Assembly: GCA_951406725.2 (NCBI GenBank) | Contig: OX597819.1 | Location: 126,418,001 to 126,482,000, forward strand | DNA: 64,000 nt | Reading direction: 5' to 3' | DNA from: Octopus vulgaris | Taxonomy: Eukaryota | Part shown: positions 2,998 through 60,298 of the stretch, piece after piece | How positions within the stretch are numbered: the stretch's first letter is position 1 | Layout: each line of letters opens with the position of its first letter | The notes under the pieces: generated by a model | The model's input: only the letters and a program-made list of their open reading frames with translations | Database searches by the model: none | What the model was told of the DNA's origin: nothing | Made by a program: the position numbers and the translations under genes

Positions 2998-3232
2998 AAG
3001 GCGGCGAGCTGGTAGAGACGTTAGCACGTCGGGCGAGATGCTTAGCGGTATTTCGTCTACCGCTACGTTCTGAGTTCAAATTCCGCCGTGGTCGACTTTG
3101 CCTTTCATCCTTTCGGGGTCGATAAATTAAGTACCAGTTACGCAGTGGAGTCGATATAATCGACTTAATCCGTTTGTCTGTCCTTGTTTGTCCACTCTTT
3201 GTTTAGCCCCTTGTGGGTAATAAAGAAATAGG
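2998..3232 (+). mobile_element. SINE family A (tRNA head, GCCTTTCATCCTTTCGGGGTCGATAAA core), full length
   Basis: A-box-like TGGTAGAGACG and B-box GAGTTCAAATTCC; 18-bp TSD TATTTATTTATCTCAGTC at 2979-2996 and 3233-3250. Confidence 0.9.
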
Positions 3233-3346
3233 TATTTATTTATCTCAGTCATAGAACCACGGCCATGCTGGAGCTTCAAGAGTGTTCAGTGGAATACATT
3301 TATCGCTCTACTTTCTTTACGTTCTATTTTCATGAACCTTGGTTGA

Positions 3347-3388
3347 AGCTTAGGACAGAAAATGTCGACAAAATCGTTAGCATATATG

Positions 3389-3419
<31 letters not shown>

Positions 3420-3710
3420 ATATGTATGTGTGTGTATGTAATGGATGTATACATATATGTATGTATATTTGTGTGTGTGTGCATACACACACATACACAT
3501 GCAGATAGACATATACACATATATTACATACATGAAAGTGAAGTATATACATATATGAGTGTGTATGTATGTGTGTGTGTTGTGTGTTCGTATGCGTGCG
3601 CGTGTGTCTCTATACATATTAATGTTTATGTGTGTGCGTGCATGTGTGTGTCTGTGTGTGTGTGTGTGTACATACATATTATAAATGATTGATAGGAAAT
3701 ATAGAGTGTA
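3347..3710 (+). repeat. Local segmental duplication, copy 1 (copy 2 at 9511-10372)
   Basis: Shared unique anchors AAGCTTAGGACAGAAAATG, CATGAAAGTGAAGTATAT and ATTATAAATGATTGATAGG in the same order. Confidence 0.85.
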
Positions 3711-5330: not shown

Positions 5331-5958
5331 CACACACACACACGCAGGACATACACACAGTGCATATCAAAACATTCATGTATAAGACGCATTGCCCCAC
5401 GCTCGCACACAACCTTATGTATAATACAGTAAATGAATGGATCTCCATCGGTTTCGACGACGATTATAAGTTGTTTAATGAATATGTAAAAAGTATCCGA
5501 GCAGAACTAGTGTAATATAGTGTATGTGAGACAAAGATGAATGTTTAAATGGTAGGAATGATTCATTTAACGGGTTTCAGTTCACATTCTCTCAATCCGA
5601 TTTCTCTTTAAAAGCTTGAGTGTAACCAACGATATTGTAAAAGACACTTTCTCCAAGATGCTACACAGTGGGATCGAAGCAGAGATGATTGTAAAGCTGA
5701 AATGTTAAACCATTCGGCCCAAAACAAACACGTAGGGACCAGTATACAAAAGAGCCAGAAACACTTTTGTGGCGACTTTGTTTAATAGAAAATAAGGAAA
5801 CAGATCTGCTTCAACTCAAAGACTGTCGTTTTAAAGAAATATGAAGGTATTTAAGACATTTGGGGTAAATGGTTGAAGGAAAAATTGTGGGACAGAATCG
5901 TAACCTCTGAAATATCTTCGATCTGTTAGGATTGACCTGGGGTTTAACAGCAACAACA

Positions 5959-6290
5959 GTGGAGGTGCAATGGCCCAGTAGTTAGGGCAGCGAACTCGCG
6001 GTCGGAGGATAGCGGTTTCGATTCCCAGACCGGGCGTTGTGTTTGTTTATTGAGCGAAAACACCTAAAGCTCCACGAGGCTCCGGCAGGTGGTGGTGGTG
6101 ACCCCTGTTGTACTCTTTCGCTCCAACTTTCTCTCACTCTTTCTTCCTGTTTCTTGTCCCCGACTTCCTACGCCACCGCTGAGCCTGGATGCGCATTCAT
6201 CCATCCGTCGATGCCCTTGGTGTCGGGGGTTGACCTGCTTTCTCTTCTGCGGGTCTTACGAATAGCAAAGGACCACATTTCGGACTTCTC
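5959..6290 (+). mobile_element. SINE family C, tail type 1
   Basis: tRNA-like head (TGGCCCAGTAG...GGTTTCGATTCC); TSD AACAGCAACAACA at 5946-5958 and 6291-6303. Confidence 0.87.
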
Positions 6291-7077: not shown

Positions 7078-7277
7078 CTCTTTTTACTCTCTCTTTTACT
7101 TGTTTCAGTCATTTGACTGCGGCCATGCAGGAGCACCGCCTTTTAGTCGAGCAAATCGACCCCGGGACTTATTCTTTGTTAGCCCAGTACTTATTCTATC
7201 GGTCTCTTTTAGCCGAACCGCTAAGTGACGGGGACGTAAACACACCAGCATCGGTTGTCAAGCAATGCTAGGGGGAC

Positions 7278-7337
<60 letters not shown>

Positions 7338-7498
7338 CATATATATACATATACGACAGGCTTCTTTCAGTTTCCGTCTAGCAAATCCACTCACATTGGT
7401 CGGCCCGGGGCTCTAGCAGAAGACACTTGCCCAAGATTCCACGCAGTGGGACTGAACCCGGAACCATGTGGTTGGTTAGCAAGCTACTTACCACACAG
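7078..7498 (-). mobile_element. SINE family B (tRNA head, CORE-like ...TTGGGCAAGTG, internal TA/TG microsatellite, GTAAAAGA tail)
   Basis: Reverse-complement match to 13578-14028 and 24338-24744. Confidence 0.85.
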
Positions 7499-8151
7499 TA
7501 TATATATATAGTTGGTGATACGATGTCAAATGACGTACGGTAATAAGTTCACACAATTAGCGATCAGGTCGAATTTGTGCCTAAACTCCAATTGTAACTG
7601 TAGGGATGTGATAGCTGCCTGCATGAAAATCAGCTTTCGACAATGTTACTGATCGAGTAGGTTTGTGTGTATCAGAGCATAAGCATTGACAGGCGGACAA
7701 CAGGCATCAAGTCAGATTATGACATGTTTATGCAGCACAACGAGAAAAGACAAATACACGAAGAAGAGTATAAAGCAAGACGTCGGCAAGACTACCGAGT
7801 GTGGGAAGTTCTTCATAGTTGAAATGTTAACAAGTAGACTCCAGGATGAGGTAGAAAGGAAATTCATAGTGTTGTGACATAGTTTGGAATAACGTGCCAG
7901 CGTGAGGACATTTCGTGGTCATTCGATGTGCTGGAAATAGCAGCCGAATCTCCGTCAGCTCAAACTTCACCCGTTTAAAAAAAATGGATATATCGGAAAA
8001 TAGGGTACTCGTACACTACTCTTTTGAAAGGAAAGAAGAACCCCACCTGCCAAAAAAAAAAGATCGATAAAAATAAGATACTGGTTGATCGCTGCAAGAA
8101 TGACCAAGTTTGATCAGGTCCAACTTGGGTCAGTCATCAACAGCAACAACA

Positions 8152-8521
8152 GGAGGCGCAATGGCCCAGTGGTTAGAGCAGCGAACTCGCGGTCGGAGGA
8201 GCGCGGTTTCGATTCCTAGACCGGGCGTTGTGTGTGTTTATTGAGCGAAAACACCTAAAGCTCCACGAGTCTTCGGCAGGGGGTGGTGGCGACCCCTGTT
8301 GTACTTTTTCGCTCCAGCTTCTCTCACTCTTTCTTCCTGTTTCTTGTCCCCGACTTCCTACGCAACTGCTGAGCCTGGATGCGCATTCATCCGTCTGTCG
8401 ATGCTCTCGGTGTCGGGGGTTGACCTGCTTTCTCTTCTGCGGGTCTTACGAATAGCAAAGGACCACGTTTCGGACTTCTCCCACTAATGGGACGATGACC
8501 GCTTCGCTTAACAAACAAATA
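8152..8521 (+). mobile_element. SINE family C, tail type 1
   Basis: TSD AACAGCAACAACA at 8139-8151 and 8522-8534. Confidence 0.88.
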
Positions 8522-8832
8522 AACAGCAACAACAACGACAATAACAACAGTAAGGACAACAACAACAACAACCAATACTTTACTGTTTTACTGCTGCTTA
8601 CGACCGTAAATTTTAATCAACAACCGCCGTCTTCCTTCCGTTGTAATTATTCACGGTCAGTTGTACTAAGCAACGTACTGTATTGCTGTTGACAGCTTTA
8701 CTGGAAATGAGATGGGCAGTTCTCGAGGAGCAGGTCAATATTCTGTTGGCTCAGTCACCTGTAATACCACATAAATAAGCACACATATAGCATACGCATA
8801 CACCACACATCTTGACAACCAAAAGCATACTC

Positions 8833-9563: not shown

Positions 9564-9797
9564 AAGGCAGCGAGCTGGCAGAAACGTTAGCTCGCCGGGC
9601 GAAATGCTTAGCGGTATTTCGTCTGTCGTTACGTTTTGAGTTCAAATTCCGCCGAAGTCGACTTTACCTTTCATCCTTTCGGGGGTCGATAAATAAAGTA
9701 CCAGTTTCGCACTGGGGTCGATGTAATCGACTTAATCCTTATGTCTGTCCTTATTTGTCCCCTCTATGTTTAGCCCCTTGTGGGTAGTAAAGAAATA
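9564..9797 (+). mobile_element. SINE family A, inserted in a locally duplicated segment
   Basis: Matches family A; absent from the paralogous segment at about 3380-3400. Confidence 0.88.
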
Positions 9798-10108
9798 TAT
9801 ATGTATATATATGTGTGTGTGTGTTATATGCGCATGTGTGTACATATGTGTATGCATGTGTATGTAATGGATGTATACATATATGTATATTTGTGTGTGT
9901 GTGCATACACACACATACACACGCAGATAGAAATATACACATATATTACATACATGAAAGTGAAGTATATATATGCATATATGTGAGTATGTATGTGTGT
10001 GTTATGTGTTCGTATGCGTGCACGTGTGTCTCTATACATATTAATGTTTATGTATGTGCGTGCGTGTGTGTGAGTGAGTGTGTGTGTGTGTATATACATA
10101 TTATAAAT

Positions 10109-10338
10109 TTCCTTCCGGTCATTCAAAATGTGACCGCGTGTGTACCGTTGGCGATTTTTTTCCCTCTGTCTTCCCTTCTCTGGATCTTTCCTTTTCCTAT
10201 GTTTCCGACGAAGAGCTCCGCTCGAAACGTTAAGCCCCCCTTCTTTCCTTCTTTCCTGAGCGTCCAATAATACTATATTTGTTCCACGTCCTCGCGTTGT
10301 TGTGTTTTTTTATGCTTTCTTGTTTGGATTAACTTTAT
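10109..10338 (+). mobile_element. Short non-autonomous element with a minimal hammerhead-like motif (family P2; Penelope-like/retrozyme-type)
   Basis: Motif GTTT-CCGACGA-A-GAGC-TCC-GCTC-GAA-ACGT-T at 10201-10231; 11-bp TSD ATATTATAAAT at 10098-10108 and 10339-10349; empty paralogous site at about 3675-3687. Confidence 0.75.
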
Positions 10339-10390
10339 ATATTATAAATGATTGATAGGGAAAATAGAGTGTACTGTTAGCTTTATTTAG

Positions 10391-10916: not shown

Positions 10917-10980
<64 letters not shown>

Positions 10981-10985
<5 letters not shown>

Positions 10986-11188
10986 TAATCCAAACAAGAA
11001 AACACAAAAAAAACACAACAACGCGAGGACGTGGAACAAATATAGTATTATTGGACGCTCAGGAAAGAAGGAAAGAAGGAGGGTTTAACGTTTCGAGCGG
11101 AGCTCTTCATCGGAAACATAGGAGAAGGAAAGATCCAGAGAAGGGAAGACAGAGGAAAAAAAATCGCCAACGGTACACACGAGGTCAC
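10981..11188 (-). mobile_element. Family P2 element with a hammerhead-like motif at 11083-11117
   Basis: Minus strand GTTT-CCGATGA-A-GAGC-TCC-GCTC-GAA-ACGT-T-AAAC; 3' end abuts (TA)n. Confidence 0.75.
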
Positions 11189-11577
11189 ATGCGTTCTGTA
11201 AGCTAGCAGTTCGGCAAACGAGTCCGATATGATACGTATCAGGATTTAAAACAATAAGTACTGGGGTCGATTTGTTCGATTAAACCCTCCAAGGCGGCTC
11301 CCATCATGGACGTAGTCCAATGACTGAGTCGTAAAAGAAAGAGAAAAGAAAATAATCAACTTTGTTCTATGTATCGAGTACTCTGGCCTTTCTCACTTAA
11401 AAACTTACACTCCATTAAACAAACTAACACTCACACACATGAATAGTATATTAGCTATAATCTCGGTTGCTATGCGGCGCCGAGCAAACATCTAAAGAAT
11501 TGATTCGCTTCTCACAAGACGTTGCATAAGTACAACAAACGAGAACTAATCAACGAACATTATTAATCCTCTGAAAT

Positions 11578-13084: not shown

Positions 13085-13577
13085 GAATAGTATATACAGT
13101 TTGCTATGTTTTAGCTCTATTGGGGGTTTTTTTTCTTCTTATTGTTGCCATTGTAATTATGGTTCTTGTCCGTCGAATTCTTTATCTTTTTTTTCTTTTT
13201 CTTTTCGCTCATGTTTCCCAAGCCAATCTGGTAGACACAAAACGTCAAAAGCTACTTCGAGATTAAGCGTATCGAATGCGGCCATGCTTTTTGCTGGTTT
13301 GAAACCACACTGAGCATTCTGTCAGCTTTTGATTGATTGCTTGTGCAGAGAAGTGTGACAATATGGACAGGTTGCATCTCGTTTTGCAGTCCCGGCTGGC
13401 CTTCTGTGCCTTATGGTGCACCCAGCGTTAAACATGCAATCAAAGAATCGATAAATGGTAGCTAGGTTTACCGTCTAATTGAAGTTTATTCAACAGCTAA
13501 CTTGGTTTTCTTACAGCTTGTCTGCCACAAAATTATCGTAAGTCAGAATATTATTATTAGTTAGAAGTTCTACCGAT

Positions 13578-13740
13578 AGGCGTAAGAGTGGCTGTGTGGT
13601 AAGTAGCTTGCTTACCAACCACCTAGCTCCGGGTTCAGACCCACTGCGTGGCACCTTGGGCAAGTGTCTTCTACTATAGTCTCGGGCCGACCAAAGCCTT
13701 GTGAGTGGATTTGGTAGATGGAAACTGAAAGAAGCCCGTC

Positions 13741-13825
<85 letters not shown>

Positions 13826-14028
13826 TCTGTGTCTGTCTGTTTGTCCCCCAACATCGCTTGACAACCGATGCTGGTGTGTTTACGTCCCCGTAACTTAGCG
13901 GTTCGGCAAAAGAAAACCGATAGAATAAGTACTAGGCTTACAAAGAATAAGTCCTGGTGTCGATTTGTTCGACTAAAGGTGGTGCTCCAGCATGGCCACA
14001 GTCAAATGACTGAAACAAGTAAAAGAGT
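13578..14028 (+). mobile_element. SINE family B, full length
   Basis: TGGCTGTGTGG A box, GGTTCAGACCC B box, CORE-like GGCACCTTGGGCAAGTG, central microsatellite, 3' TGAAACAAGTAAAAGAG. Confidence 0.88.
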
Positions 14029-17430: not shown

Positions 17431-17903
17431 CAGAGAGACGGAGTTGTTCTTTAGGAAGACGAGCTACAAGTGAATATATTTTCATAACTGCAAATAGACA
17501 TGTCGTCCGTTTCCAAATATGGCATGCCGCCGTGCACTCGATAAACCCCGACTCTGTATTTTTATTAGCCACACACTTGTATTTTAGTTGCAATACATTC
17601 ATCTCTCTGCTCTCTTGTTCACAGCGTGACACCGTTACACACATATAGCCGTGTATTGCACTGCAAAACCCCTGCCAATTTAAACTGATGTATTTGTCAT
17701 TGAGATAAAAACACATCATCAAACTGCAACACAGATGGCACCCTCGGTCAAACTCAACCTAATTTAAACTAGCTTGGTCTAGCCCAGTCCTTCTCTCTCT
17801 CTCTCTCTCTACGCTCCCACCACTCGCTTTCACAATGAAATATTCATAAGCAGCTTTAACATTTCTAAACTTAATTAGCCATGAACGGACAGCTATTTTT
17901 ATG

Positions 17904-23901: not shown

Positions 23902-24337
23902 GTATATAATGTCTGTATATAATCTCGGAAAATGTCTTCAGTCAGTCAATACAAACAATAATATAATAATGAAGAAGTCCGTCATTGGTGGGGCGATCTG
24001 TGATTTCATTTGTTTTTTGATTCGTTCGTTGTCTTAAACACTTGCTACCGAATGTCTGGTTGGCTGACTGACTATTTACTGTGTGGTTGTCTGTCAGGCT
24101 GCCTGCTCGTCTGACTGTCATGCTGGCTGTCTGTCTGTCTGGCCGTTTGCAAGCTTAAAGTTTAGTCTCGCCCATTTCTCTCTAGAGACGCCATTGTAAA
24201 CGCTGTTTGCCAACGGCGATTTCCACCGAGAATAAATTTATAAAATAAAATTGTCTTATATTTGGTGGGAGAAAGCCGTTGGCAAATATCAATAGTTATC
24301 CCGAGACAACGAGAAATCCCTCTATACATTGTACAAT

Positions 24338-24744
24338 AGGCGCAGGAGTGGCTGTGTGGTAAGTAGCTTGCTAACTAACCACATGGTTCCGGGTTCAGTC
24401 CCACTGCGTGGCATCTTGGGCAAGTGTCTCTGCTATAGCCTCGGGCCGACCAATGCCTTGCGAGTGGATTTGGTAGACGGAAATTGAAAGAAGCCTATCG
24501 TATATATGTATATATATGTATGTGTGTGTATATGTTTGTGTATCTGTGTTTGTCCCGCTAGCATTGCTTGACAACCGATGCTGGTGTGTTTACGTCCCCG
24601 TCACTTAGCGGTTCGGCGAAAGAGACCGATAGAATAAGTACTGGGCTTACAAAGAATAAGTCACGGGGTCGATTTGCTCGACTAAAGGCGGTGCTCCAGC
24701 ATGGCCGCAGTCAAATGACTGAAACAAGTAAAAGAGTAAAAGAG
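24338..24744 (+). mobile_element. SINE family B, full length
   Basis: Matches family B. Decayed or partial copies also at about 12474, 25240 (-), 25670, 33037, 38449, 41820, 60143 and 61220. Confidence 0.88.
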
Positions 24745-26224
24745 AATGATTTTTATTAGACACACCATAGAAAGACAGAATCGACTAAACAGGACAAGAG
24801 GGTACACGTGGGATGGAGAGTCGCTGAAAAGATCAGACGATGTGCGATAAAAAAATTTCCAGACAATGGACATAAAATAAGAACAATAATAAGCAAGCGA
24901 AGAACGAATAAACAGTGCGTGTGTTTATTTGGAATGAAAAAAAAATCACCGTCCCGAAATATAACAATAGATTTTATTACTGTTCAGCTTCAACAACAAC
25001 AAGGATGACGATTGCAACAATAACAATATCTAGTAGATAAATATATAAGCCGAACGAAGAGAGGGGAAGAACCTTTCTCTAACGCAATTAACTCACTGGC
25101 TTCGATTCAATTTATCATTATGCCATACTAATAAATATTGTTTTTTGTCAACCGAAAAGGCATTAATATAAGTGAGGTGGGGGTGGGGAAGACTAGATAA
25201 TGTAGAACTCGACACAATATCTTTTATCATGTATCTTTTATCTGCTTTTCAGTCATTAGACTGCGGCCACTCTTTGAAGAACTTTTAGGTTAAATGAATC
25301 GACCCCACTACTTATTCTTTTTAGAGCCTGGTACTTATTTTATCGGTCTTTTTTGCTGAACTGCTAATTGTTACGGTGACGTAAACACACCAACAATGGT
25401 TATCAAGCGGTTGTTGGGACAAGACAGCCCCCCCCCACACACACATATTTGTACGACGAGCTTCTTTTAGTTTCCGCCTTTCAGATCCACCCACAAAGCA
25501 TTAATCGGCCCGAGGCTATAGCAGAAAACACCTGACCAAGGTGTCACGCAGTGGGACATACATCAGAACATACATCCTTCGGAGTCGATTAAATAAGTAC
25601 CAGTTGAGCACTAGGGTCGATGTAATCGACTAGCTCCCTCCCGCCAAATCTCAGGCCTCGTGTCTATAGAAGCTGTGTAGTAAAAACATTGGTTCCCAAC
25701 CACATGATTCCAGGTTCAGTCTCACTGCGTGACATCTTGGGCAAGTGCTTTCTATTATAACCCCGGTCCGACAAAATTCTTGTGAGTGGATTTGGTAGAC
25801 AGAAACTGAAAGAAGCCCGTCGTATATATTTATGTCTGTGTGTGAGTGTGTGTACTTATTTCTGTAGCCTTGATTTAATCTTAAGTAGAGTGAAGCTGTG
25901 CCGAAATCCGTCGAATGGACTGCACATGAAATTTGAAAGGTCTAGCCATGTCACATACTGTATCTCGCTGATCCTGCTTAAGGATTACGTCGAGAGTACA
26001 AATGTCTGTGGAGTACTCAATCACTTACAAGCTTTATCAATGAGTTGATCGAACAGCAAATTACATTTCCTTGAAACAAATGAAGATCGTGTTCTTCTTT
26101 ACTTTTTTTTTTATTACCTCTTTTGCAGAAATATACTTACATCGTTGAAATACACTTCTCTCCGCCGCCACTCGCTCTCCATCTCTTTCATCCTTTCCTT
26201 TTACCCCACCTAACTTTATTCATA

Positions 26225-26622
26225 CCTATTTCTGTTTCTTTATTACCCACAAGGGGCTAAACATAGAGAGGACAAACAAGGACAGACATAGGTATTAAGT
26301 CGATTACATCGACCCCCAGTGTGTAACTGGTACTTATTTAATCGACCCCGAAAGGATGAAAAGTAAACTCAACCTCGGCGGAATTTGAACTCAGAACGTA
26401 GCGGCAGACGATATACTTATTTCTTTACTACCCACAAGGGACTAAACACAGAGAGGACAAACAAAGACAGACATAGGTATTAAGTCGAATACATCGACCC
26501 CAGTGCGAAACTGGTACTTAATTTATCGACCCCGAAAGGATGAAAAGCAAAGTCGACCTCGGCGGAATTTGAACTCAGAACGTAACGGCAGACGAAATAC
26601 CGCAAAGCATTTCACCCGCCTT
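26225..26622 (-). mobile_element. SINE family A head-to-tail dimer
   Basis: Two units flanked by one TSD, TAACTTTATTC(A/G)TACC, at 26211-26226 and 26622-26637. Confidence 0.85.
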
Positions 26623-27823
26623 AACTTTATTCGTACCACTTCGGTTTCTTTGTTCATATTAACCGATCGGCAATAATACTTTCCAATTTTGTTTTATTTT
26701 TCGTAATTGTCTTTTTTAACTTACATTGAATAGCCCCCCCGGCCCACTTTCTCTAGTTCTCCTCCTCTGCCCAATTCTCCCTCCTCCACTTCTTTTTCCA
26801 TCTTTCTTTCTTCTTCTTCTTCGCCAGGTTTTCCTTTACCTCCTTTACCTCCACGTTTTTGCTCTCCTCACCTTTTTTCTCTCTATTTTTTTCCTTTCCT
26901 ATACATTTTCGCTCATTCTTTCCCTCTCTCACCACACTGCTTTTCAAATACCTCTTTCCCTCTTTATATCATCTCCTCTTTTGCTATTACTCTTTCTCTC
27001 TTTCACACAACCTCTCTCTCTCTCTCTCTCTCTCGCTCAATACACCCGATGTTTCCATTCCTTCCTCATCCATACATCCATCCAGTCAGTCAGTCATTCA
27101 GTCTTCCACACATACAAGTATCATCCTGACCTATCAGTTTCCTGTCCATCATCCTTCCCTCAATTTTACACTGCCAATCACTTTTTCTCCATACTCTTCC
27201 TTCCCCTCTCCACTCGTTCACTCACTCACTCACTCACTCACTCACTCACTCACTCACTCATTCAATCTCTCCCTCAATCATTCGCCAGTTAACTCTCTAT
27301 CTCGTCTGCTTCTCATTCTTTCTGCCAGTGTGTCGTCTGCTCGATCGCCTGTCTCTCATTCGCTCCCCCGTTTTGTCGACTGCCCCCTAAACAAACCAAC
27401 GAGGGAACCGCTACGAGGCTGATCCCTCGACCTGCAAGAATTAACAATCAAATGTCACTCAAATCACACCCAGGTCGTCTTAGAAAAAAATACGTGTGGT
27501 AATGTGACCCTGGCTCTGTAAGTAAGAAAAAGATGGAATGGTCACAAGAATGACTTTAATCAGTCCCGTAATATTCTTGAATCTCGCTCCTAACCTTGAG
27601 CCAAAATTTCATCTCATCCTGCTTCTTTTCTTTCTCTGTCCCTCTTCCTCTCTCACCGTCTTCTCCTCTCCTCACTCTCTCCTCTTTTCTTCCTCTACCA
27701 TCTCTTCCTTTCTCTCTCCTCTCTCCGTCTATCTATTGACTAATATGAGTAACTTCAGATAATCTAACTAGTTTGTAAGTATATGCATCTAAGCGTATAT
27801 TGTGCGTATACATTTTGACGCTT

Positions 27824-28076
27824 AAGGCGGCGAGCTGGCAGAAACGTTAGCGCGCCGGACGAAATGCTTAGCGGCATTTGAACTCAGAGCGTACTCTGAG
27901 TTCAGATTCCGCCGAGGTCGAATTTGCCTTTCATCCTTTCGGTGTCGATAAATAAAGTACCAGTTTCGCACTGGGGCCGATGTAATCGACTTAATCCCTT
28001 TGTCCTTGTTTGTCCCCTCTATGTTTAGCCCCTTGTGGGCAGCAAAGAAATATATACATTTTGACGTTTGTATGTA

Positions 28077-30516: not shown

Positions 30517-30599
30517 ATATATAAACATTCATAAATACGTATATATATACACACACATATATATATTATATATAAATACATACATATATGTATATCTTT

Positions 30600-30992
30600 T
30601 TCTTTTATTCTTTTACTTGTTTCAGTCATTTGAGTGCGGCCATGCTGGAGCACCACTTTTAATCGAACAAGTCGACCCCAGGACTTATCTTTGCAAGCCT
30701 GGTACTTATTATATCGGTGTTTTTTGCCGAAACGCTAGATTACAGAGTGATACACACACCAGCATCGGTTGTCAAGCGACGGTGGGAGGGACAAATACAC
30801 ACACAAATACATACATATACCTATATATATACGACGGGCTTCTTTCAGTTTCCGTCTACCAAATCCACTCACAAGGTTTTAGTCGGCCTGAGACTATAGT
30901 AGAAAGCACTTGCCCAAGGTACCACGCAGTGGGAATGAACCCAGAACCATGTGGTTGTAAGCAAGCTTCTTACCCTCAGCCACACCGGCGCC
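30600..30992 (-). mobile_element. SINE family B
   Basis: Reverse-complement match to family B. Confidence 0.82.
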
Positions 30993-31147
30993 TATATATG
31001 TTTATGTATCCTATCCCACACCTGAACCCGTACACACACACTCACACACAAACACACACATGCTCTCCTTCTCACTCTCTCTCTCTCTCTCACTTTCGTA
31101 CCCAATCGCGCGGTTTTCCTATACTGTGAATATAAAAAAAAACTTTT

Positions 31148-31889: not shown

Positions 31890-32450
<561 letters not shown>

Positions 32451-43082: not shown

Positions 43083-43329
43083 GTATATACATATACACAT
43101 ACACATACCTACATATTATCTCTGTCTCTCTGTCTCTTTTTCTCTCTTACACACACACACACACACATTACACATTGAGACATCTAAAATTACTCCACTA
43201 TTTGCTTTTCATAAAGTGTTCTTTATCATTATTAGTACAAGGTAAACACATCCACTTTATTTTGTTTTAACACTAAATCAGCTACAGTTGTATCTTCTGT
43301 AATGATAATGATGATAATAATAATAAAGA

Positions 43330-44142
<813 letters not shown>

Positions 44143-45286
44143 AAGATGAAGATGAGGAAAATGATGCTGATGATAGCAATGATGACGATGATGGCGATGA
44201 TGATGATAATGACGATAACGATGATAATGGTGAGGATGACACCCTTGACCTAACTATATGTTCCAAACTTATTTTGCATGTGGGTAAAAATTTAAATATA
44301 TAAATCATTGTTTCGTACCCTCTTGCAGTTCTGCTAATTGACTACCCTTACGCAAATTTTTATACCTTAAGACGTTAATTGCCGGGGCAACGATGGACCA
44401 TCTACGCAGCCACTCCATCTGCTAAAATTTAACAGTCATTTCTTTAAATCATACATCGTATGGTTTAACCTAGCAATATATAATATCCCCAAAATTTGAA
44501 AAAAATTATGCAATGTGAAATATTTATTGCTTACAATTAATTATAGAATTATAAAATAAAAAAAGAGATGTACTTGCATAGCGAGTGACTTGATCTGAGA
44601 TCGTGTGCTGGAACGAAAACAATTGCAGCGTGGAAGGTGATTATAAGCCATTTAAGAAACATACAAAAACCGTTGAAGTTTTGTCTGCGAACATGTCGCG
44701 GTCTGAAAGCGACGAAAATATTTTGACAAATTAAATTTAAATGTTGAAGTGAATCTAACAGTTTTTGTGTGTTTCTTAAATGGCTTATAAACACCTTCCA
44801 CGCTGCTATTGTTTAAAATAAAAAGCTTCTCTGTAAATAGATTAAAAGGAAAAATATACATTGGGCAACATATTCTTCGATAAATCTACGAAGATAAGAT
44901 TACCTTAGTCTTTTGAACTTTTGATGGAGTTCTAGCGGTGTGTATTCTAACATGCAGTATACGTTAGACATTTTCAGAGCTGGCAACACCAATATTTCAT
45001 CTGGTCTCACCACAACAGATTGCTCGCAGAAAGAGACACAGACAGATAGGTGGAATGAAAGAGGGTGATGAGATAAGAAATGGCCCAGTAAAATGCTGGT
45101 ATTTTTAGATATGGACTCTAAAAGGCGGAAAAGCGAAGTTGAGAGCAGAGAGAAGGGGCGAATGCTACAAAGCAAGTTATCCGATGCTCGAAACGGCTCA
45201 GCCTTTTCGCCGCCCTCTAATGATGGGGTTGTCGTTGCTGAAATGCTTTTCATCATATACATGCTCCAATAACAACAGCAACAACA

Positions 45287-45661
45287 GTGGAGGCGCAATG
45301 GCCCAGTTGTTCGGGCAGCGGAAGCGCGGTCGGAGGATACGGTTTCGATTTCCAGACCGGGCGTTGTGTGTGTTTATTGAGCGAAAACACCTAAAGCTCC
45401 ACGAGGCTCCGGCAGGGGATAGTGGCGACCCCTGTTGTACTCTTTCGCCCCAAATTCCTCTCACTCTTTCTTCCTGTTTCTTGTCCCCCGAATTCCTACG
45501 CAACCGCTGAGCCTGGATGCGCATTCATCCATCCGTCGATGCTCTCTTGGTGTTGGGGGTTGACCTGCTTTCTCTTCTGCGTGTCTTACGAATAGCAAAG
45601 GATCACGTTTCGGATTTCTCCCACTAATGGGACGAAGACCGCTTCGCTCAACAAACAAACA
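45287..45661 (+). mobile_element. SINE family C, tail type 1
   Basis: TSD AACAGCAACAACA at 45274-45286 and 45662-45674. Confidence 0.88.
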
Positions 45662-46282
45662 AACAGCAACAACAAGTAAAACTTCTCAGATCAATAACGT
45701 TACCAGTCAACAGTTAGATCCATTGAACCCTGAGATTGATTGTTTTATAGACCGTGAGAAAAGGTCAAATATAAATGAGTTCGAATCTAACAAGGTATTA
45801 TGGTGATCCTAAGGGAGATTTCAGCAAAAATCACGGGTATATTATTTGATTTCAAAACTTAATCCCATCTCTTCCATATTTTCAACAGATTCCTTCTATT
45901 ACTGTATTTTCCTCTCTTGATAATTAACTTCAGGTTTGTGGTGGTAATCATTTCTAGTTTAACCATTAAATTAAGTTTAATGTAATTTTAACCACATCAT
46001 GTAATTTTAGCCATTAAAAGTAGTTTTTACTACTTCATTAAAGGTAATTTTAACCACTTGATTAAAATCACTTGTAATCCCTTCATTAAGAAGTAATTGC
46101 AATTATTTCATTGGAAATACTTTTAAGCGTAACATTCTATAAATATTTTACGTTCAAGCAAAGTGGGAAGCCCCGAAGTAATCGCTCAACCTGTTAGAAA
46201 AAGCAGCTACAACTCACTCTATATTAAAAGCTAACCCCTTGACAAGGGAGAGGAAAATCTCACATACGCATACAGACACACG

Positions 46283-46981: not shown

Positions 46982-47664
46982 TAACGCACATATTTGCATT
47001 TATACATATACATATGCATATGTATTCTTATATATATATATATATCTATGTAAGTATATGTGAGTGGGTGTGTGTGCGTGTGTTTATGTGTGGTTATATA
47101 TATATGTATGCGTCTTTGTATGTGTATACGTACGTACTTCTGCATATATGTATCGTCGGTTGACTACTCGGTCACTGTGACTTCTTTTTTATTGCCATCA
47201 ATTAACCATATCATGCTAATACAACTTCTCCCATATTAGATGACTACAGAGACTCAGCTTTAATTTTCCTGGCAAATATAGCAAGGAATTTGGGCAGCGA
47301 CATCAAAAGGGGCGGCACCTCTGTGCATTCGTCCAAATTGGATATCCGACCCAAAATCAGATGTATACATCTCTGAGCCTAATAAGAACACTGTTCGGGT
47401 TTAGCTGGTGGTAGTGCATCCATATAAGCGTCTTGCGCTTGTCTCCCTCTTGTGATCTTCCACAGTTAAGGAACCTGGCTTTCAAAAGCTTTATTGCAAC
47501 TACAAGCATTGCAAAGTGAGATCACTTGTAGATTTTAGATCTTCTACAACACAGATCCTCAACATCTTGGCATTTTCGGCTATTTTCGTTCATGACGCAC
47601 ATTTCTGTTTCTCTCTGCTGACAATACTTCCAGATTGCAGACCCCACTCATTTTGTTTTATTCA

Positions 47665-47887
47665 TTACTCTTTTACTCTTTTACTCGTTTCAGTCATTTG
47701 GCTGCGGCCATGCTGGAGCACCGCCTTTAGTCGAGCAAATCGACCCCGGGGACTTATTCTTTGTAAGCCCAGTACTTATTCTATCGGTCTCTTTTGCCGA
47801 ACCGCTAAGTGACGGGGACGTAAACACACCAGCATCGGTTGTCAAGCAATGCTAGGGGGACAAACACAGACACACAAACACACACAT

Positions 47888-47962
<75 letters not shown>

Positions 47963-48128
47963 TACGACAGGCTTCTTTCAGTTTCCGTCTACCAAGTCCA
48001 CTCACAAGGCATTGGTCGGCCCGGGGCTATAGCAGAAGACACTTGCCCAAGATGCCACGTAGTGAGACTGAACCCGGAACCATGTGGTTGGTTAGCGAGC
48101 TACTTACCACACAGCCACTCCTGCGCCT
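47665..48128 (-). mobile_element. SINE family B inserted in the RTE remnant
   Basis: Full-length reverse-complement match. Confidence 0.88.
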
Positions 48129-48508
48129 AATGTTCCTAATTCGTATTTGTATTTGGCTTGCAAAATACTTGGTATGAGTTCGTGTGAGCCTCCCCGGGGA
48201 AAACAAGATATTCCTAGTTTTTTCTATTAATCAAAGAATTAAAACTTAATTGTTCTCTTCCGTTTCATTTTTCTTTCTTTCTGAGTAACCGCAGAAACGT
48301 CATAACCAAGCCTAATGCATATAATTCATGCTGAGCTGTGCTTCCATACTGGAACTGTACGCCTTTCCAAACACTTCTCTATCAGATTTAAGAAATATCC
48401 CACTGATGCTTGATACGATGCTTAATTACTTCTGATAGGATCTTCCACAAATTTTTTGATCTCTTGTTATTATAGTACCCGTGTCTACGATGGGTATATT
48501 AAGTATAT

Positions 48509-48925
48509 AAGGCGGTGAGCTGGCAGAAACGTTAGCATGCCGGGCGAAATGCGTAGCCGTATTTTGTCTGCCGTTACGTTCTGAGTTCAAATTCCGCCGA
48601 GGTCGGCTTTGTCTTTCATCTTTTCGGGATCGATAAATTAAATACCTGTTACGCACTGGGGTCGATGTAATCGACTTAATCCGTTTGTCTGTCCTTGTTT
48701 GTCCCCTCTGTGTTTAGCCCCTTGTGGGTAGTAAAGAAATAGGTATTCCGTCTGTCGTTACGTTCTGAGTTCAAATTCCGCCGAGGTCGACTTTGCCTTT
48801 AATCCTTTCCGGGTCGATAAATTAAGTACCAGTTACGTACTGGGGTCGATGTAATCTACTTAATCCCTTTGTCTGTCCTTGTTTGTCTTCTCTGTGTTTA
48901 GCCCCTTGTGGGTAGTAAAGAAATA
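48509..48925 (+). mobile_element. SINE family A head-to-tail dimer inserted in the RTE remnant
   Basis: 16-bp TSD GGTATATTAAGTATAT at 48493-48508 and 48926-48941. Confidence 0.9.
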
Positions 48926-49452
48926 GGTATATTAAGTATATGATGACGCAAGCTTGGTGGAAAGCTTCAAGTCTCTATCTGACCCAACTACTTTTTCGAG
49001 TGTTCCAAACGCGACTGAAGCTTTCCGAACCCTTTTGATCATCTCAGTATCTAAGAACATTTTTGAAAACAGATATGCTAGGTACATTAAGTAATGAAAA
49101 TATATGTGCATGTGTGTATGTGTGTATTTGAAATAATCTAACTATGACTCGTCATATGATCCTAATTTCTATATTTCTATATTTCTTCTCATTGATCTCA
49201 CTGAATACATATATGTACGTAGACTCAGACTGCCAACGATAGCTTTATAGAAATTTCTTGTGAGCCAACAAGGGATCCTGAATATGAATTCATCACACTC
49301 ATTAGAAATAGCAACAAAATGTCCCACTGTACCGTCTGAAAAATGATACCTTCTACTACACCTGATTCTAAAGTATTAAAGATGTGATACCTGTAAGAAA
49401 GAAAATGGAATGGTGAGTAAGAGGAGGCTTTTGATCATAGGTTTAATGAGTC

Positions 49453-53484
<4,032 letters not shown>

Positions 53485-53938
53485 TAGAGAGTCGAAACAA
53501 TACCGCAAAGCATGTTGTCCGATACTCTAAATGATTCTTCCACTAGCAAAAGTATATACGTTACAGAATCGGAAATAAGAATATGGGTTTTCAATAACAA
53601 TCAAAATCACAGCTTAGTCCTCGATCTATTCAATTAAGTTTGAGCTAGTTTTAAACATCATCATCAGCAGCAGCAGCATCGTCGTCGTCGCCGCCGACAT
53701 GGTTATAATCAGTATTATTGATATCCGTCGATTTCACTCACATGGTTTGGAAATCATCCTGTTGCTTTGGTCGAGGATACAAGCAGGATCGAAACCGGTG
53801 ATAACTGGGGCTACGATTAGGATAATGGTGTAGTTGTTGTTGCCGTTGTCGTCATCGTCGTTCTCTTCTTCCTCCTTCTCCTCCTCTTCATCGCTAGCAT
53901 TAGCAGTAACAGCCAAATCAAATTCAAATCACTTACTA

Positions 53939-54552
53939 CCTATTTCTTTACTACCCACAAGGGGCTAAACACAGAAGGAACAAACAAGGACAGACATAGG
54001 TATTAAGTCGATTACATCGACCCCAGTGCGCAACTGGTACTTAGTTTATCGACCCCGAAAGGATGAAAGGCAAAGTCGACCTCAGCGGAATTTGAACTCA
54101 GAAAGTAACGACAGACGAAATACCTATTTCTATTTCTTTACTACCCACAAGGGGCTAAACACAGAAGGAACAAACAAGGACAGACATAGGTATTAAGTCG
54201 ATTACATCGACCCCAGTGCGCAACTGGTACTTAGTTTATCGACCCCGAAAGGATGAAAGGCAAAGTCGACCTCGGCGGAATTTGAACTCAGAAAGTAACG
54301 ACAGACGAAATACCTATTTCTATTTCTTTACTACCCACAAGGGGCTAAACACAGAAGGAACAAACAAGGACAGACATAGGTATTAAGTCGATTACATCGA
54401 CCCCAGTGCGCAACTGGTACTTAGTTTATCGACCCCGAAAGGATGAAAGGCAAAGTCGACCTCGGCGGAATTTGAACTCAGAATGTAAAGACAGTCGAAA
54501 TACGGCTACGCATTTCGCCCGGTGAGCTAACGTTTCTGCCAGCTCACCGCCT
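53939..54552 (-). mobile_element. SINE family A trimer, 190-bp period
   Basis: Near-identical units recur at 53941, 54131 and 54321 on the + strand; single 15-bp TSD TTCAAATCACTTACT at 53923-53937 and 54553-54567. Confidence 0.92.
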
Positions 54553-55552
54553 TTCAAATCACTTACTCCCATTTTAGGAAAAAGAGGTTAGATTTGATTT
54601 TTAAAAAGTCGATATGCTTATAATGGGAACACTTTTGACCATGGGTTTCTTAGATCTCATCTAACTCCTGGGTTAAACTACATCAGTGATCATATTCGTC
54701 ACTGTTATCATCATCGTTCACATCGTCGTCATCATTAGTGTCGTAGTTGTGGAGGTGGTCATCATCATAATAATAATCATTATCAATAATTTTCTTATTA
54801 ATCAACCAAAATAGTGCAAATGCCGTCAAGAAACGTTTGGTTAGCTATTTTAAGTTGGATTAGACCCGCCCCCCGGTCCCACCTCAACACGTCACATCCT
54901 GTTTATTATTATTCTTTATGCTTCTATTATTGTTGTTGTTGTTCTTCTTCTTAATCAGCAAACTTCTTCAGAAGAGCGGGTCGGGGGAGCAGCGGTCATT
55001 AGAATGGGCAGTGTAGCAACCAAAACTGATCTCGTTTTTTTTTTAGATGTGTTGTTTGTTGTTGTCATTGCTTTTGGTATGTTGTTGTTGTTGATGTTGT
55101 TTTCAATAGTTTTTAATAAATAGCATTCATCCATTGCAAGATAAATCAGTTACAAACAGACAAAAAAATAATAAAAAAAGCAACCTAAAACAAAAATCGG
55201 TTGGAATAGAATGTTAAAATGTAAAGAAACGAAGAGATGGAGACGGTGGGAGCGAGCGTCAGACAAGCATCGCAGTGAGAAAAATCCTTCAAAAATAAAT
55301 GCTGGAAGATATATTCACACTGGAAATCAAATTGGAAACTGAGATGTGAAATTGAATGTTAACACTTCAATGATTTTAAACAACAACAACAACAACAACA
55401 AAAAACAAAAACAACTAGAGAAACAATAACAAGAAGAAAAAAAACTCCAACAGTAATAACACTAATAACAACACTGCTCTTAATCATCAATATCGTCAGT
55501 ATCAACATACATCAGACGCAGCAACAACAGCAATAACACTAACAAGAAGACA

Positions 55553-59527: not shown

Positions 59528-60298
59528 GCACATACACACATACACGCACACATACAAGCCGAAAAGTAAAAAAAATCAATGGCTATCGATAGAAATGGCC
59601 ATCGATAGAAACGAGACGTGCAAAGAAGAAAGCTTCTTTCAGCTCATCCCGCTAAATCGCCATTTTTGTGGTTTACGCATTTGCCATCATGACTTTTAGC
59701 ACCACGAAACTTTTGCCTGATAAGCCGTGATATAAGAACCGCTGGTAGCTTTGGGCGATTATCGTTCTTATATCTCGAGCCGTATTACTGTTACACGCAG
59801 AAACATACCGGAAGTCTATTTGATCGATTGTAAAGTAATTCAATGAACAAGCAGACAACAATGATTTCTTATTCAGGTACAAGGCCACCAATCTTGAGGT
59901 GGGGAATCTAACCAATACCTATTTCTTTATTGCCCACGAGGGGCTAAACATAGAGGGGACAAACAAGTACAGAAAAACGGATTAAGTCGATTACATCGAC
60001 CTCAGTGCGTCACTGGTACTTTGCCGAGCTCAAACCTATACGCTCCATTATAATCATTACAATACGTGCTCTCTAAAGCTGCAAGACGTAGCAGTCAAAT
60101 TTCACTCACAATCGCCTTTTTAAAATGAACATAATCGATGCAAGTGTGGCTGTGTTGTAAGACGTCTGCTTCCCAACCACATGATTCAGGGTTCAATCCT
60201 ACTGCGTAGCACCTTGGGCAAGTGTCTTCTACAACAGCCTCGGGCCGAACAAAGCCTTGTGATTGGACTTGGTAGACGGAAGCTGAAAGAAGACCGTC

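Follow-up and report, generated by a model that had tools for sequence, protein, structure and literature searches.

The question raised by this locus is why three units of a SINE, lined up in tandem within a single TSD, should be joined at exactly the same internal point as the units of two dimers lying elsewhere in the window (by which we mean the whole 64-kb stretch of Octopus vulgaris DNA that was analysed). The window is eukaryotic in character and rich in microsatellites, with 173 stop-to-stop ORFs listed, and it harbours 18 insertions of an element of ~232 bp, hereafter family A, in the form of 15 monomers, two dimers and one trimer.

Family A is a tRNA-type SINE, not an intact tRNA gene. 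Its parts, which can be read directly from the copies, are A- and B-box-like motifs (assigned by the Pol III consensus), a long head hairpin, a central domain common to an older family, family B, and a tail ending in AAAGAAATA. The head is predicted to fold with an acceptor-like pairing, and a tRNA gene search with ARAGORN found none. The element is dispersed and in high copy number (besides the insertions in the window, 291,396 contigs were matched in run X1), its monomers differ from each other by a median of 9.3% over 91 pairs, and a TSD-like match of at least 10 bases flanks 13 of the 18 insertions, one of these 13 being doubtful. In the TSDs, priming by microhomology at GGTAT-like targets is evident. 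Exact-motif scans for family A in genome, viral and metagenome contig collections returned no loci.

The head hairpin has a loop of 4 nt (positions 45-48, by fold and alignment), and 91.7% of its cells are paired across copies, one pair being altered on both sides, so that the covariation amounts to a single pair and probably to a single event. One subfamily has G-C in place of U-G at the loop-closing pair, positions 44/49 (for instance window 54509 and 54504), both bases having changed; its share of depth in organisms A and B is 17-21%, as against <1% in organism E, a more distant relative. Cleavage by the tRNA-splicing endonuclease was considered and rejected as the origin of the joint, the sites predicted by manual tRNA mapping lying near 39|40 and 58|59 and not at 49|50. 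Several copies are rearranged: the monomer at 50592-50798 (minus strand) has a 28-base internal deletion within the central domain; two 5' truncations, at positions 32 and 34 (window 23493 and 28769), and an internal deletion ending near 34 (26616-26621) are all located at the base of the hairpin 5' arm; and in the copy at 27825-28052 positions ~56-70 are replaced by an inverted copy of ~66-83 (window 27875-27900, plus strand), an inversion that begins at the same ATTT of the hairpin arm and amounts to a fold-back template switch.

Other repeats share the window with family A. Three family B copies in a row at 43320-44142 (minus strand) have the family A head and centre and a tail ending in ATT-type microsatellites, and the middle one starts at position 51, behind a microsatellite, adjoining the point at which family A units are joined. 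Interspersed repeats of at least three more families, 200-470 bp long and 75-95% alike, are also present (the first at 5946-6290, 8138-8535 and 45273-45675; the second at 7084-7498, 13577-14028, 24333-24749, 30594-30995 and 47662-48133; the third at 10128-10349 and 10967-11190), as well as a 318-column repeat, 87% alike, at 3382-3686 and 9797-10108, which begins exactly at the end of the SINE copy 9565-9797.

The trimer occupies 53938-54552 on the minus strand, between identical 15-mers, AGTAAGTGATTTGAA, at its 5' (54553-54567) and 3' (53923-53937) ends, and tandem-repeat finding gives a period of 190, 3.0 copies (unit number as assembled) and 98% matches over 53940-54503, just as a preliminary description of this DNA had it, namely a trimer of 190-bp period inside one TSD. 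The tRNA-like head (positions 1-49; 54504-54552) is present once in the alignment and bears the A-box-like motif (54530-54541); the core of the predicted hairpin (54493-54520, loop 45-48) has as its 3' arm the start of every headless unit. The body of unit 1 (190 bp; 54314-54503) contains the B-box-like motif (54468-54479; both motifs being assigned by the Pol III consensus) and leads into junction 1 (54306-54320), at which a tail with a doubled GAAATA meets position 50. Next come headless unit 2 (190 bp by tandem repeat and alignment; 54124-54313), junction 2 (54116-54130) and headless unit 3 (53938-54123), for which alignment and inspection of the end reveal a single GAAATA tail and a run-on into GGT; the second GAAATA is present at the trimer junctions and missing from the terminal unit. 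The variants specific to the trimer are common to its units, as had been described, save that unit 1 departs from the others at three sites within positions 58-69. Unit 2 differs from unit 1 at three of 183 sites and from unit 3 at one (one to four differences in 183 overall), four of the five private changes fall within the first 69 bases (p about 8e-4), and there is no T4 run on either strand of the trimer. The trimer units are nearly copies of one template.

Both dimers have a period of 184 with 91% matches, at 26235-26600 and 48559-48930, by tandem-repeat finding. The one at 48 kb (48510-48925, plus strand) consists of head and body (48510-48742) and a headless body (48743-48925), with TSD copies at 48493-48508 and 48926-48941 that are identical at 16 of 16 bases; the one at 26 kb (26227-26621, minus strand) consists of a head with an internal deletion plus body (26621-26417) and a headless body (26416-26227), with TSD copies at 26622-26637 and 26211-26226 that agree at 15 of 16, which bears out the earlier reading that the dimers at 26225-26622 and 48509-48925 each sit inside one TSD. 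The deletion in the head of the 26-kb dimer covers about positions 7-34 and is not a 5' truncation. The units of these dimers differ like unrelated monomers, at 16 and 15 of 183 sites. In the 26-kb dimer 13 differences are non-CpG, and at eight of them both alleles recur in at least two of 14 monomers (p <= 1e-5 against random decay), hence decay alone is an insufficient explanation, and the two units were not copied from one circle. In the 48-kb dimer three of 12 differences are at family-wide alleles, which is not significant (p 0.02-0.12). T4 runs occur in both dimers, one of them being a variant common to two monomers. The raw TSD mismatches (10 in 217 bases, or 4.6%, mostly at the edges), taken as a clock against the non-CpG dimer-unit differences of 7.5% and 8.2%, are non-discriminating when raw and biased low when trimmed. 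In a tree of family A units, from which the truncated copy at 59916 was left out, the multimer units need three changes, a number as low in four of 500 shuffles, although near-copies inflate this result; the pair formed by the 26-kb dimer has a support of 89/81 and is not starred.

It is at the joints that the three multimers agree. All four internal junctions (two dimers plus trimer), observed directly in the alignment, join the tail to element position 50; the four extra units start there and are therefore not full length. As the loop spans positions 45-48, the joint lies 0-1 base into the hairpin 3' arm, depending on whether its first G is counted as tail or as position 49. The preliminary description had placed a fixed joint right after the loop, which stands as far as fixity goes (four of four at position 50) and has to be adjusted for a loop of only 4 nt. 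Each multimer plainly has one outer TSD and none inside. Head sequence is present in three of three multimers, none of the 18 insertions begins at position 50 against flank, and none of the three multimers in the window is an array of four or more units.

How common this joint is was surveyed in contigs of four public runs, aligned to one monomer (53251-53484, minus strand) at 85% likeness. In X1, a DNA run that may stem from the same sample as the window, the strongest joint by depth among those listed is 53434 to 53251 (184 back; depth 9,179 in 44 contigs), joined by the same-register 53436 to 53253 (depth 1,866 in 10 contigs), while 802 contigs have a loose end at position 50 for which the consensus is the tail. 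Among the nine tail-to-body joints listed, 12,510 of 13,193 depth units (94.8%) are in the 183-184 register, and the remaining two joints lead from the tail to positions 58 and 66; the share is ~83% if 5'-end-to-tail joints are included (depth 1,142 and 800, 37 and 26 contigs), in which the intervening letters are not known. With a depth of 9,179 against about 20 for single-copy flank, the junction copies number at least hundreds. The joint recurs in two further runs, probably of RNA, that belong to two other studies (14 and 9 contigs), and is thus no assembly artefact. By contrast, organism E yields a single junction contig out of 144,103, whereas X1 has at least 54 out of 291,396, and in organism E the junction, the tail end and both young alleles are all rare together. 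The 49/50 junction is thus a real, common and lineage-restricted feature. Junction contigs in X15 and X16, whose RNA status is a guess from runs of unrecorded library type, have mean depths of 26 and 35, and their junction-to-tail depth ratio is 1.3% against at least 0.8% in DNA, a comparison in which contigs cannot show expression level and which we use neither for nor against a circular template. Separately, an opposite-strand joint of 53419 to 53485 (position 66 with the 5' end) occurs in 20 contigs of X1 and 24 of X10, and possibly reflects inverted neighbours or a second insertion hot spot.

Letters of the junction also turn up where no further unit follows, and these run-ons are again seen directly. 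At least GG comes after a complete tail at eight of 18 insertion ends (0.61 expected; nine if the looser 28979 is counted) and at least GGTA at five of 18 (0.06 expected), GGTA being found at the end of three of three multimers versus two of 15 monomers (Fisher p 0.012). The monomer at 2999-3237 (plus strand) extends into the junction letters by 7 bases, of which the initial GG is not in its 5' TSD copy, and the 5'-truncated monomer at 59914-60021 (minus strand), for which no TSD was found, runs 6 bases into them; the run-ons noted beforehand at 3230 and 59915 are just as described. Part of the run-on is target-derived microhomology, which implies that the RNA carried the junction letters. A second tail class, which continues with T(A), accounts for seven of 18 ends; since it matches a related tail without junction letters, these letters look like an addition. 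That related tail closes an 80-bp element, of which one copy was seen, at 32196-32275 (plus strand), within a (TATC)n array. At its 3' end this element is similar to the family A tail (74-87% in local matches, without junction letters), its upstream sequence being different, and it may represent the 3' terminus of the partner LINE or else of another, third SINE family. Fainter resemblances to the tail are found at 17555-17574 and 24752-24766.

Alleles add a further layer. The joint has G49 although two of the three multimers have heads of the G44/C49 type. None of the joints listed in X1 (lowest listed depth 230) is of the C49 type, yet the C49 allele makes up 17.8% of depth there and 18-21% in the probable RNA runs; this G49 would also be explained if the tail ended in G and were joined end-to-end at 49|50. 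The A-form of the junction, which is that of the 26-kb dimer, has a depth of 1,866 versus 230-333 for other single-base variants, that is, it is 6-8 times commoner, as would be the case for an inherited lineage. The C176A allele is present at two of three multimer loci (five of seven units), in none of 14 monomers and in 4.5% of X1 depth; its share is higher in the probable RNA runs (8.7% and 15.2%), which is a hint at most.

The explanation that we favour on balance is that the 49/50 joint arose once or a few times and has since been inherited from concatemeric masters, whose read-through RNA gets primed at any tail. The founding joint would have been a template switch or a ligation, favoured by the GAAATA of the tail, which resembles the hairpin 5' arm and is complementary to positions 51-56 of the 3' arm. 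According to the predicted folds, the 3' arm is locked in the hairpin in full-length RNA (probability about 1.0) and the tail is free, whereas in headless RNA the tail pairs with 51-56 (probability 0.87-0.995) and both ends meet at the junction; such a pairing would favour a jump or a ligation at the junction and leaves some room for a circle. From then on, we infer, source concatemers would be transcribed by Pol III read-through and the LINE reverse transcriptase would prime internally, at any tail of this RNA, so that the joint would be inherited rather than formed repeatedly. Priming at the first tail would yield a monomer, often keeping a few junction letters, and priming at the second or third a dimer or trimer within one TSD. 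In favour of this reading are the dominance of one register among the joints, the run-ons, the second tail class without junction letters, the G49 of the joint behind C49 heads, the depth of the A-form, the tie between multimers and the C176A subfamily, the heads on all multimers, the lack of a T4 run in the trimer and the joint rarity of junction, tail end and young alleles in organism E. An intact RTE LINE is named in Octopus vulgaris in a passage of PMC12988792, and may be a partner for family A.

Inheritance from concatemeric masters does not come free of charge. Because dimer units differ at family-wide alleles, it needs either mosaicism or repeated formation, and mixed-lineage dimers call for exchange between copies, whether by homologous template switching or by gene conversion. 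For the near-identical trimer a later homogenising step would be required: unequal exchange or slippage, whether in place or in its source, or else one template copied repeatedly. Its pattern fits both unequal exchange, local or in the source, and a single template that was copied several times before a switch. The T4 runs of both dimers also count against this reading. Whole multimer loci number only three, and neither a source concatemer nor a read-through transcript was seen in the window and contigs examined. More speculatively, the junction TATTT behind the tail could be a leaky terminator handed on intact by multimers alone, which might keep them active as sources. In mammalian SINEs TATTT is a moderate Pol III terminator, at which 42% of transcripts ended in a B2 construct (as given in a section of PMC8466645), and the idea is weakened by the presence of TATTT also in the head (51-55).

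Of the alternatives, the one that survives best, though we consider it unlikely, is a template jump programmed anew at each insertion, from the hairpin 3' arm to the 3' end of a second RNA. The reverse transcriptase would copy the 3' arm, the refolding hairpin would free the cDNA end (or the RNA would be cut at the loop) and the cDNA would land on the second RNA by GTATTT microhomology or by tail-to-arm pairing. Such a jump accounts for dimer units of different lineages, is in line with the modelled behaviour of the tail (paired in headless RNA, free in full-length RNA) and with the clustering of rearrangements at the hairpin (5' ends at 32 and 34, the deletion ending near 34 and the fold-back at 52-55 in copy 27825), and has precedents, in that switching between SINE RNAs is invoked in part of PMC4824008 and end-to-end template jumping by R2 is cited in a passage of PMC2881922. 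However, no headless copy is joined to flank among the 18 insertions, six mostly A-U pairs in trans would presumably be weak, and three near-identical units are not explained by the jump alone. Moreover, a jump by microhomology requires RNAs that already end in junction letters, which means that its sources already carry the joint. A programmed jump at each insertion, which had been proposed beforehand, may occur without being needed.

The circular template proposed at the same time is more doubtful still. Here, a ribozyme-free circle would be made by cutting the loop and ligating the headless body, rolling-circle reverse transcription would follow, and a final switch to a full-length RNA would provide the head. 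In its detailed form, which we hold to be equally doubtful, a host nuclease would open the loop, the tail would zip onto the 3' arm, a tRNA-type ligase would close a circle of 184/190 nt and the LINE reverse transcriptase would roll and then switch, the trimer being the genomic print of these events. In its favour, units 2 and 3 of the trimer are almost the same, four of the five private changes crowd into the first 69 bases as a two-template switch would have it, the end-to-end stem predicted by folding would bring both ends to the junction, and the doubled tail would yield an 8-nt loop. Yet the terminal trimer unit lacks that doubled tail, all three multimers have heads whereas a circle of positions 50-232 has none, and the 26-kb dimer units are not copies of one template. 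An Rfam search for known ribozymes gave nothing up to E 10, neither strand of the unit has a hammerhead or HDV core motif, and the circular MFE folds do not surpass those of shuffled sequences (z 0.1, -0.2 and +1.9; 100 shuffles each), leaving no highly self-paired fold. Of the original proposal of a circular or concatemeric RNA template, the concatemeric RNA persists, as does the non-randomness of the junction; multimers in general cannot stem from a single circle, in view of the alleles of the 26-kb dimer and the three heads out of three.

Duplication in the DNA itself, in which a monomer flanked by 5-7 bases of microhomology would be duplicated by slippage or unequal exchange, strikes us as improbable. 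The excess of GGTA ends in multimers is in its favour, it fits the homogeneity of the trimer (for which, at that locus alone, its chances are about even), and unit number is stated in part of PMC10702118 to vary at orthologous SINE-derived satellite loci. Local duplication nevertheless gives identical units, while dimer units differ at recurrent alleles; junction tails are unlike terminal tails in the trimer and the 26-kb dimer; and units 1 and 2 differ directly behind the microhomology.

Least probable by some way is self-insertion, in which a new copy primes at GGTAT in an older one and homologous annealing makes a seamless tandem, for although the GGTAT-like microhomology priming evident in the TSDs and the divergence of units are what it would lead one to expect, it predicts identical positions 50 to ~65 in first and last unit, where three, two and two differences of 16 bases were found (7 mismatches in 48 bases), and the two units at 26 kb share a subfamily allele whose frequency is 4.5%. 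The preliminary description had named scattered junctions, or units as divergent as independent insertions with nested TSDs (self-insertion), as contrary to its own reading. Half of this is found: the units of the dimers diverge as much as independent insertions do, yet nested TSDs are absent and the joints keep to one position. Self-insertion in situ is thus disfavoured, while the founding junction may have been made in this way.

The closest known system is that of the squamate SINE-derived satellites (sSat), notably sSat3Ati1/2 and sSat3SRP, which likewise repeat part of a SINE in tandem, the terminal unit being longer. Typical of sSat are arrays of four or more units, a unit number that varies between orthologous loci and a subtelomeric bias. 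As laid out in parts of PMC10702118, sSat3Ati2 (179 nt) extends from the last part of the head through the body and LINE-derived region, and the boundary of sSat3SRP is fixed across snakes, its start lying at position 42; unequal recombination and same-locus insertion are discussed there, and in the main text the terms 'TSD', 'template switch', 'rolling' and 'microhomology' do not occur. Unlike sSat, the arrays in the window are of two to three units, dispersed, each in a TSD and accompanied by monomers running into the junction, which indicates a spread through RNA. Head-to-tail SINE dimers and trimers as such are also known from B2, Dip and Ves, as well as Alu-type dimers, the former three reaching 40%, 49% and 11.5% of copies in the account given in part of PMC8466645, which in that part leaves open whether they transpose as units. 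Those units are full-length (a passage of PMC10702118 says so for Dip), whereas here the additional units have neither head nor A box and are all attached at one internal point. Non-LTR retrozymes, with 150-450 bp units, monomers to multimers and sometimes TSDs, for which rolling-circle spread is proposed in portions of PMC7229834 and bioRxiv 10.64898/2026.07.22.740005, differ in having a hammerhead and a highly self-paired circle, neither of which is predicted here, where a tRNA-type head and a LINE-like tail are found instead. We rejected a retrozyme identity on these grounds, the unit being free of a hammerhead and the circular folds at shuffle level.

Closer to home, the octopus SINEs OR1 and OR2, reportedly described by Ohshima and Okada in 1994, are said to share a tRNA head and a central part and to differ in the tail, much like families A and B here, a likeness by description only. 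The central domain of family A is presumably Nin/Deu-like, in contrast to the filing of OR1/OR2 as CORE-SINEs. The latter filing is that found in some of the SINE classification literature. No account of the 49/50 junction was found in the literature searched, which was mostly non-subscription and without supplements.

Family A behaves as a SINE that on occasion transposes in multimeric form. A circular template, if true, would be a new way of making and copying circular RNA without a ribozyme. More broadly, these multimers show how a dispersed SINE can turn into a tandem repeat whose boundary is fixed and, it seems, spread by retrotransposition, which bears both on why SINE-derived satellites have uniform boundaries and on whether SINE multimers transpose as units.
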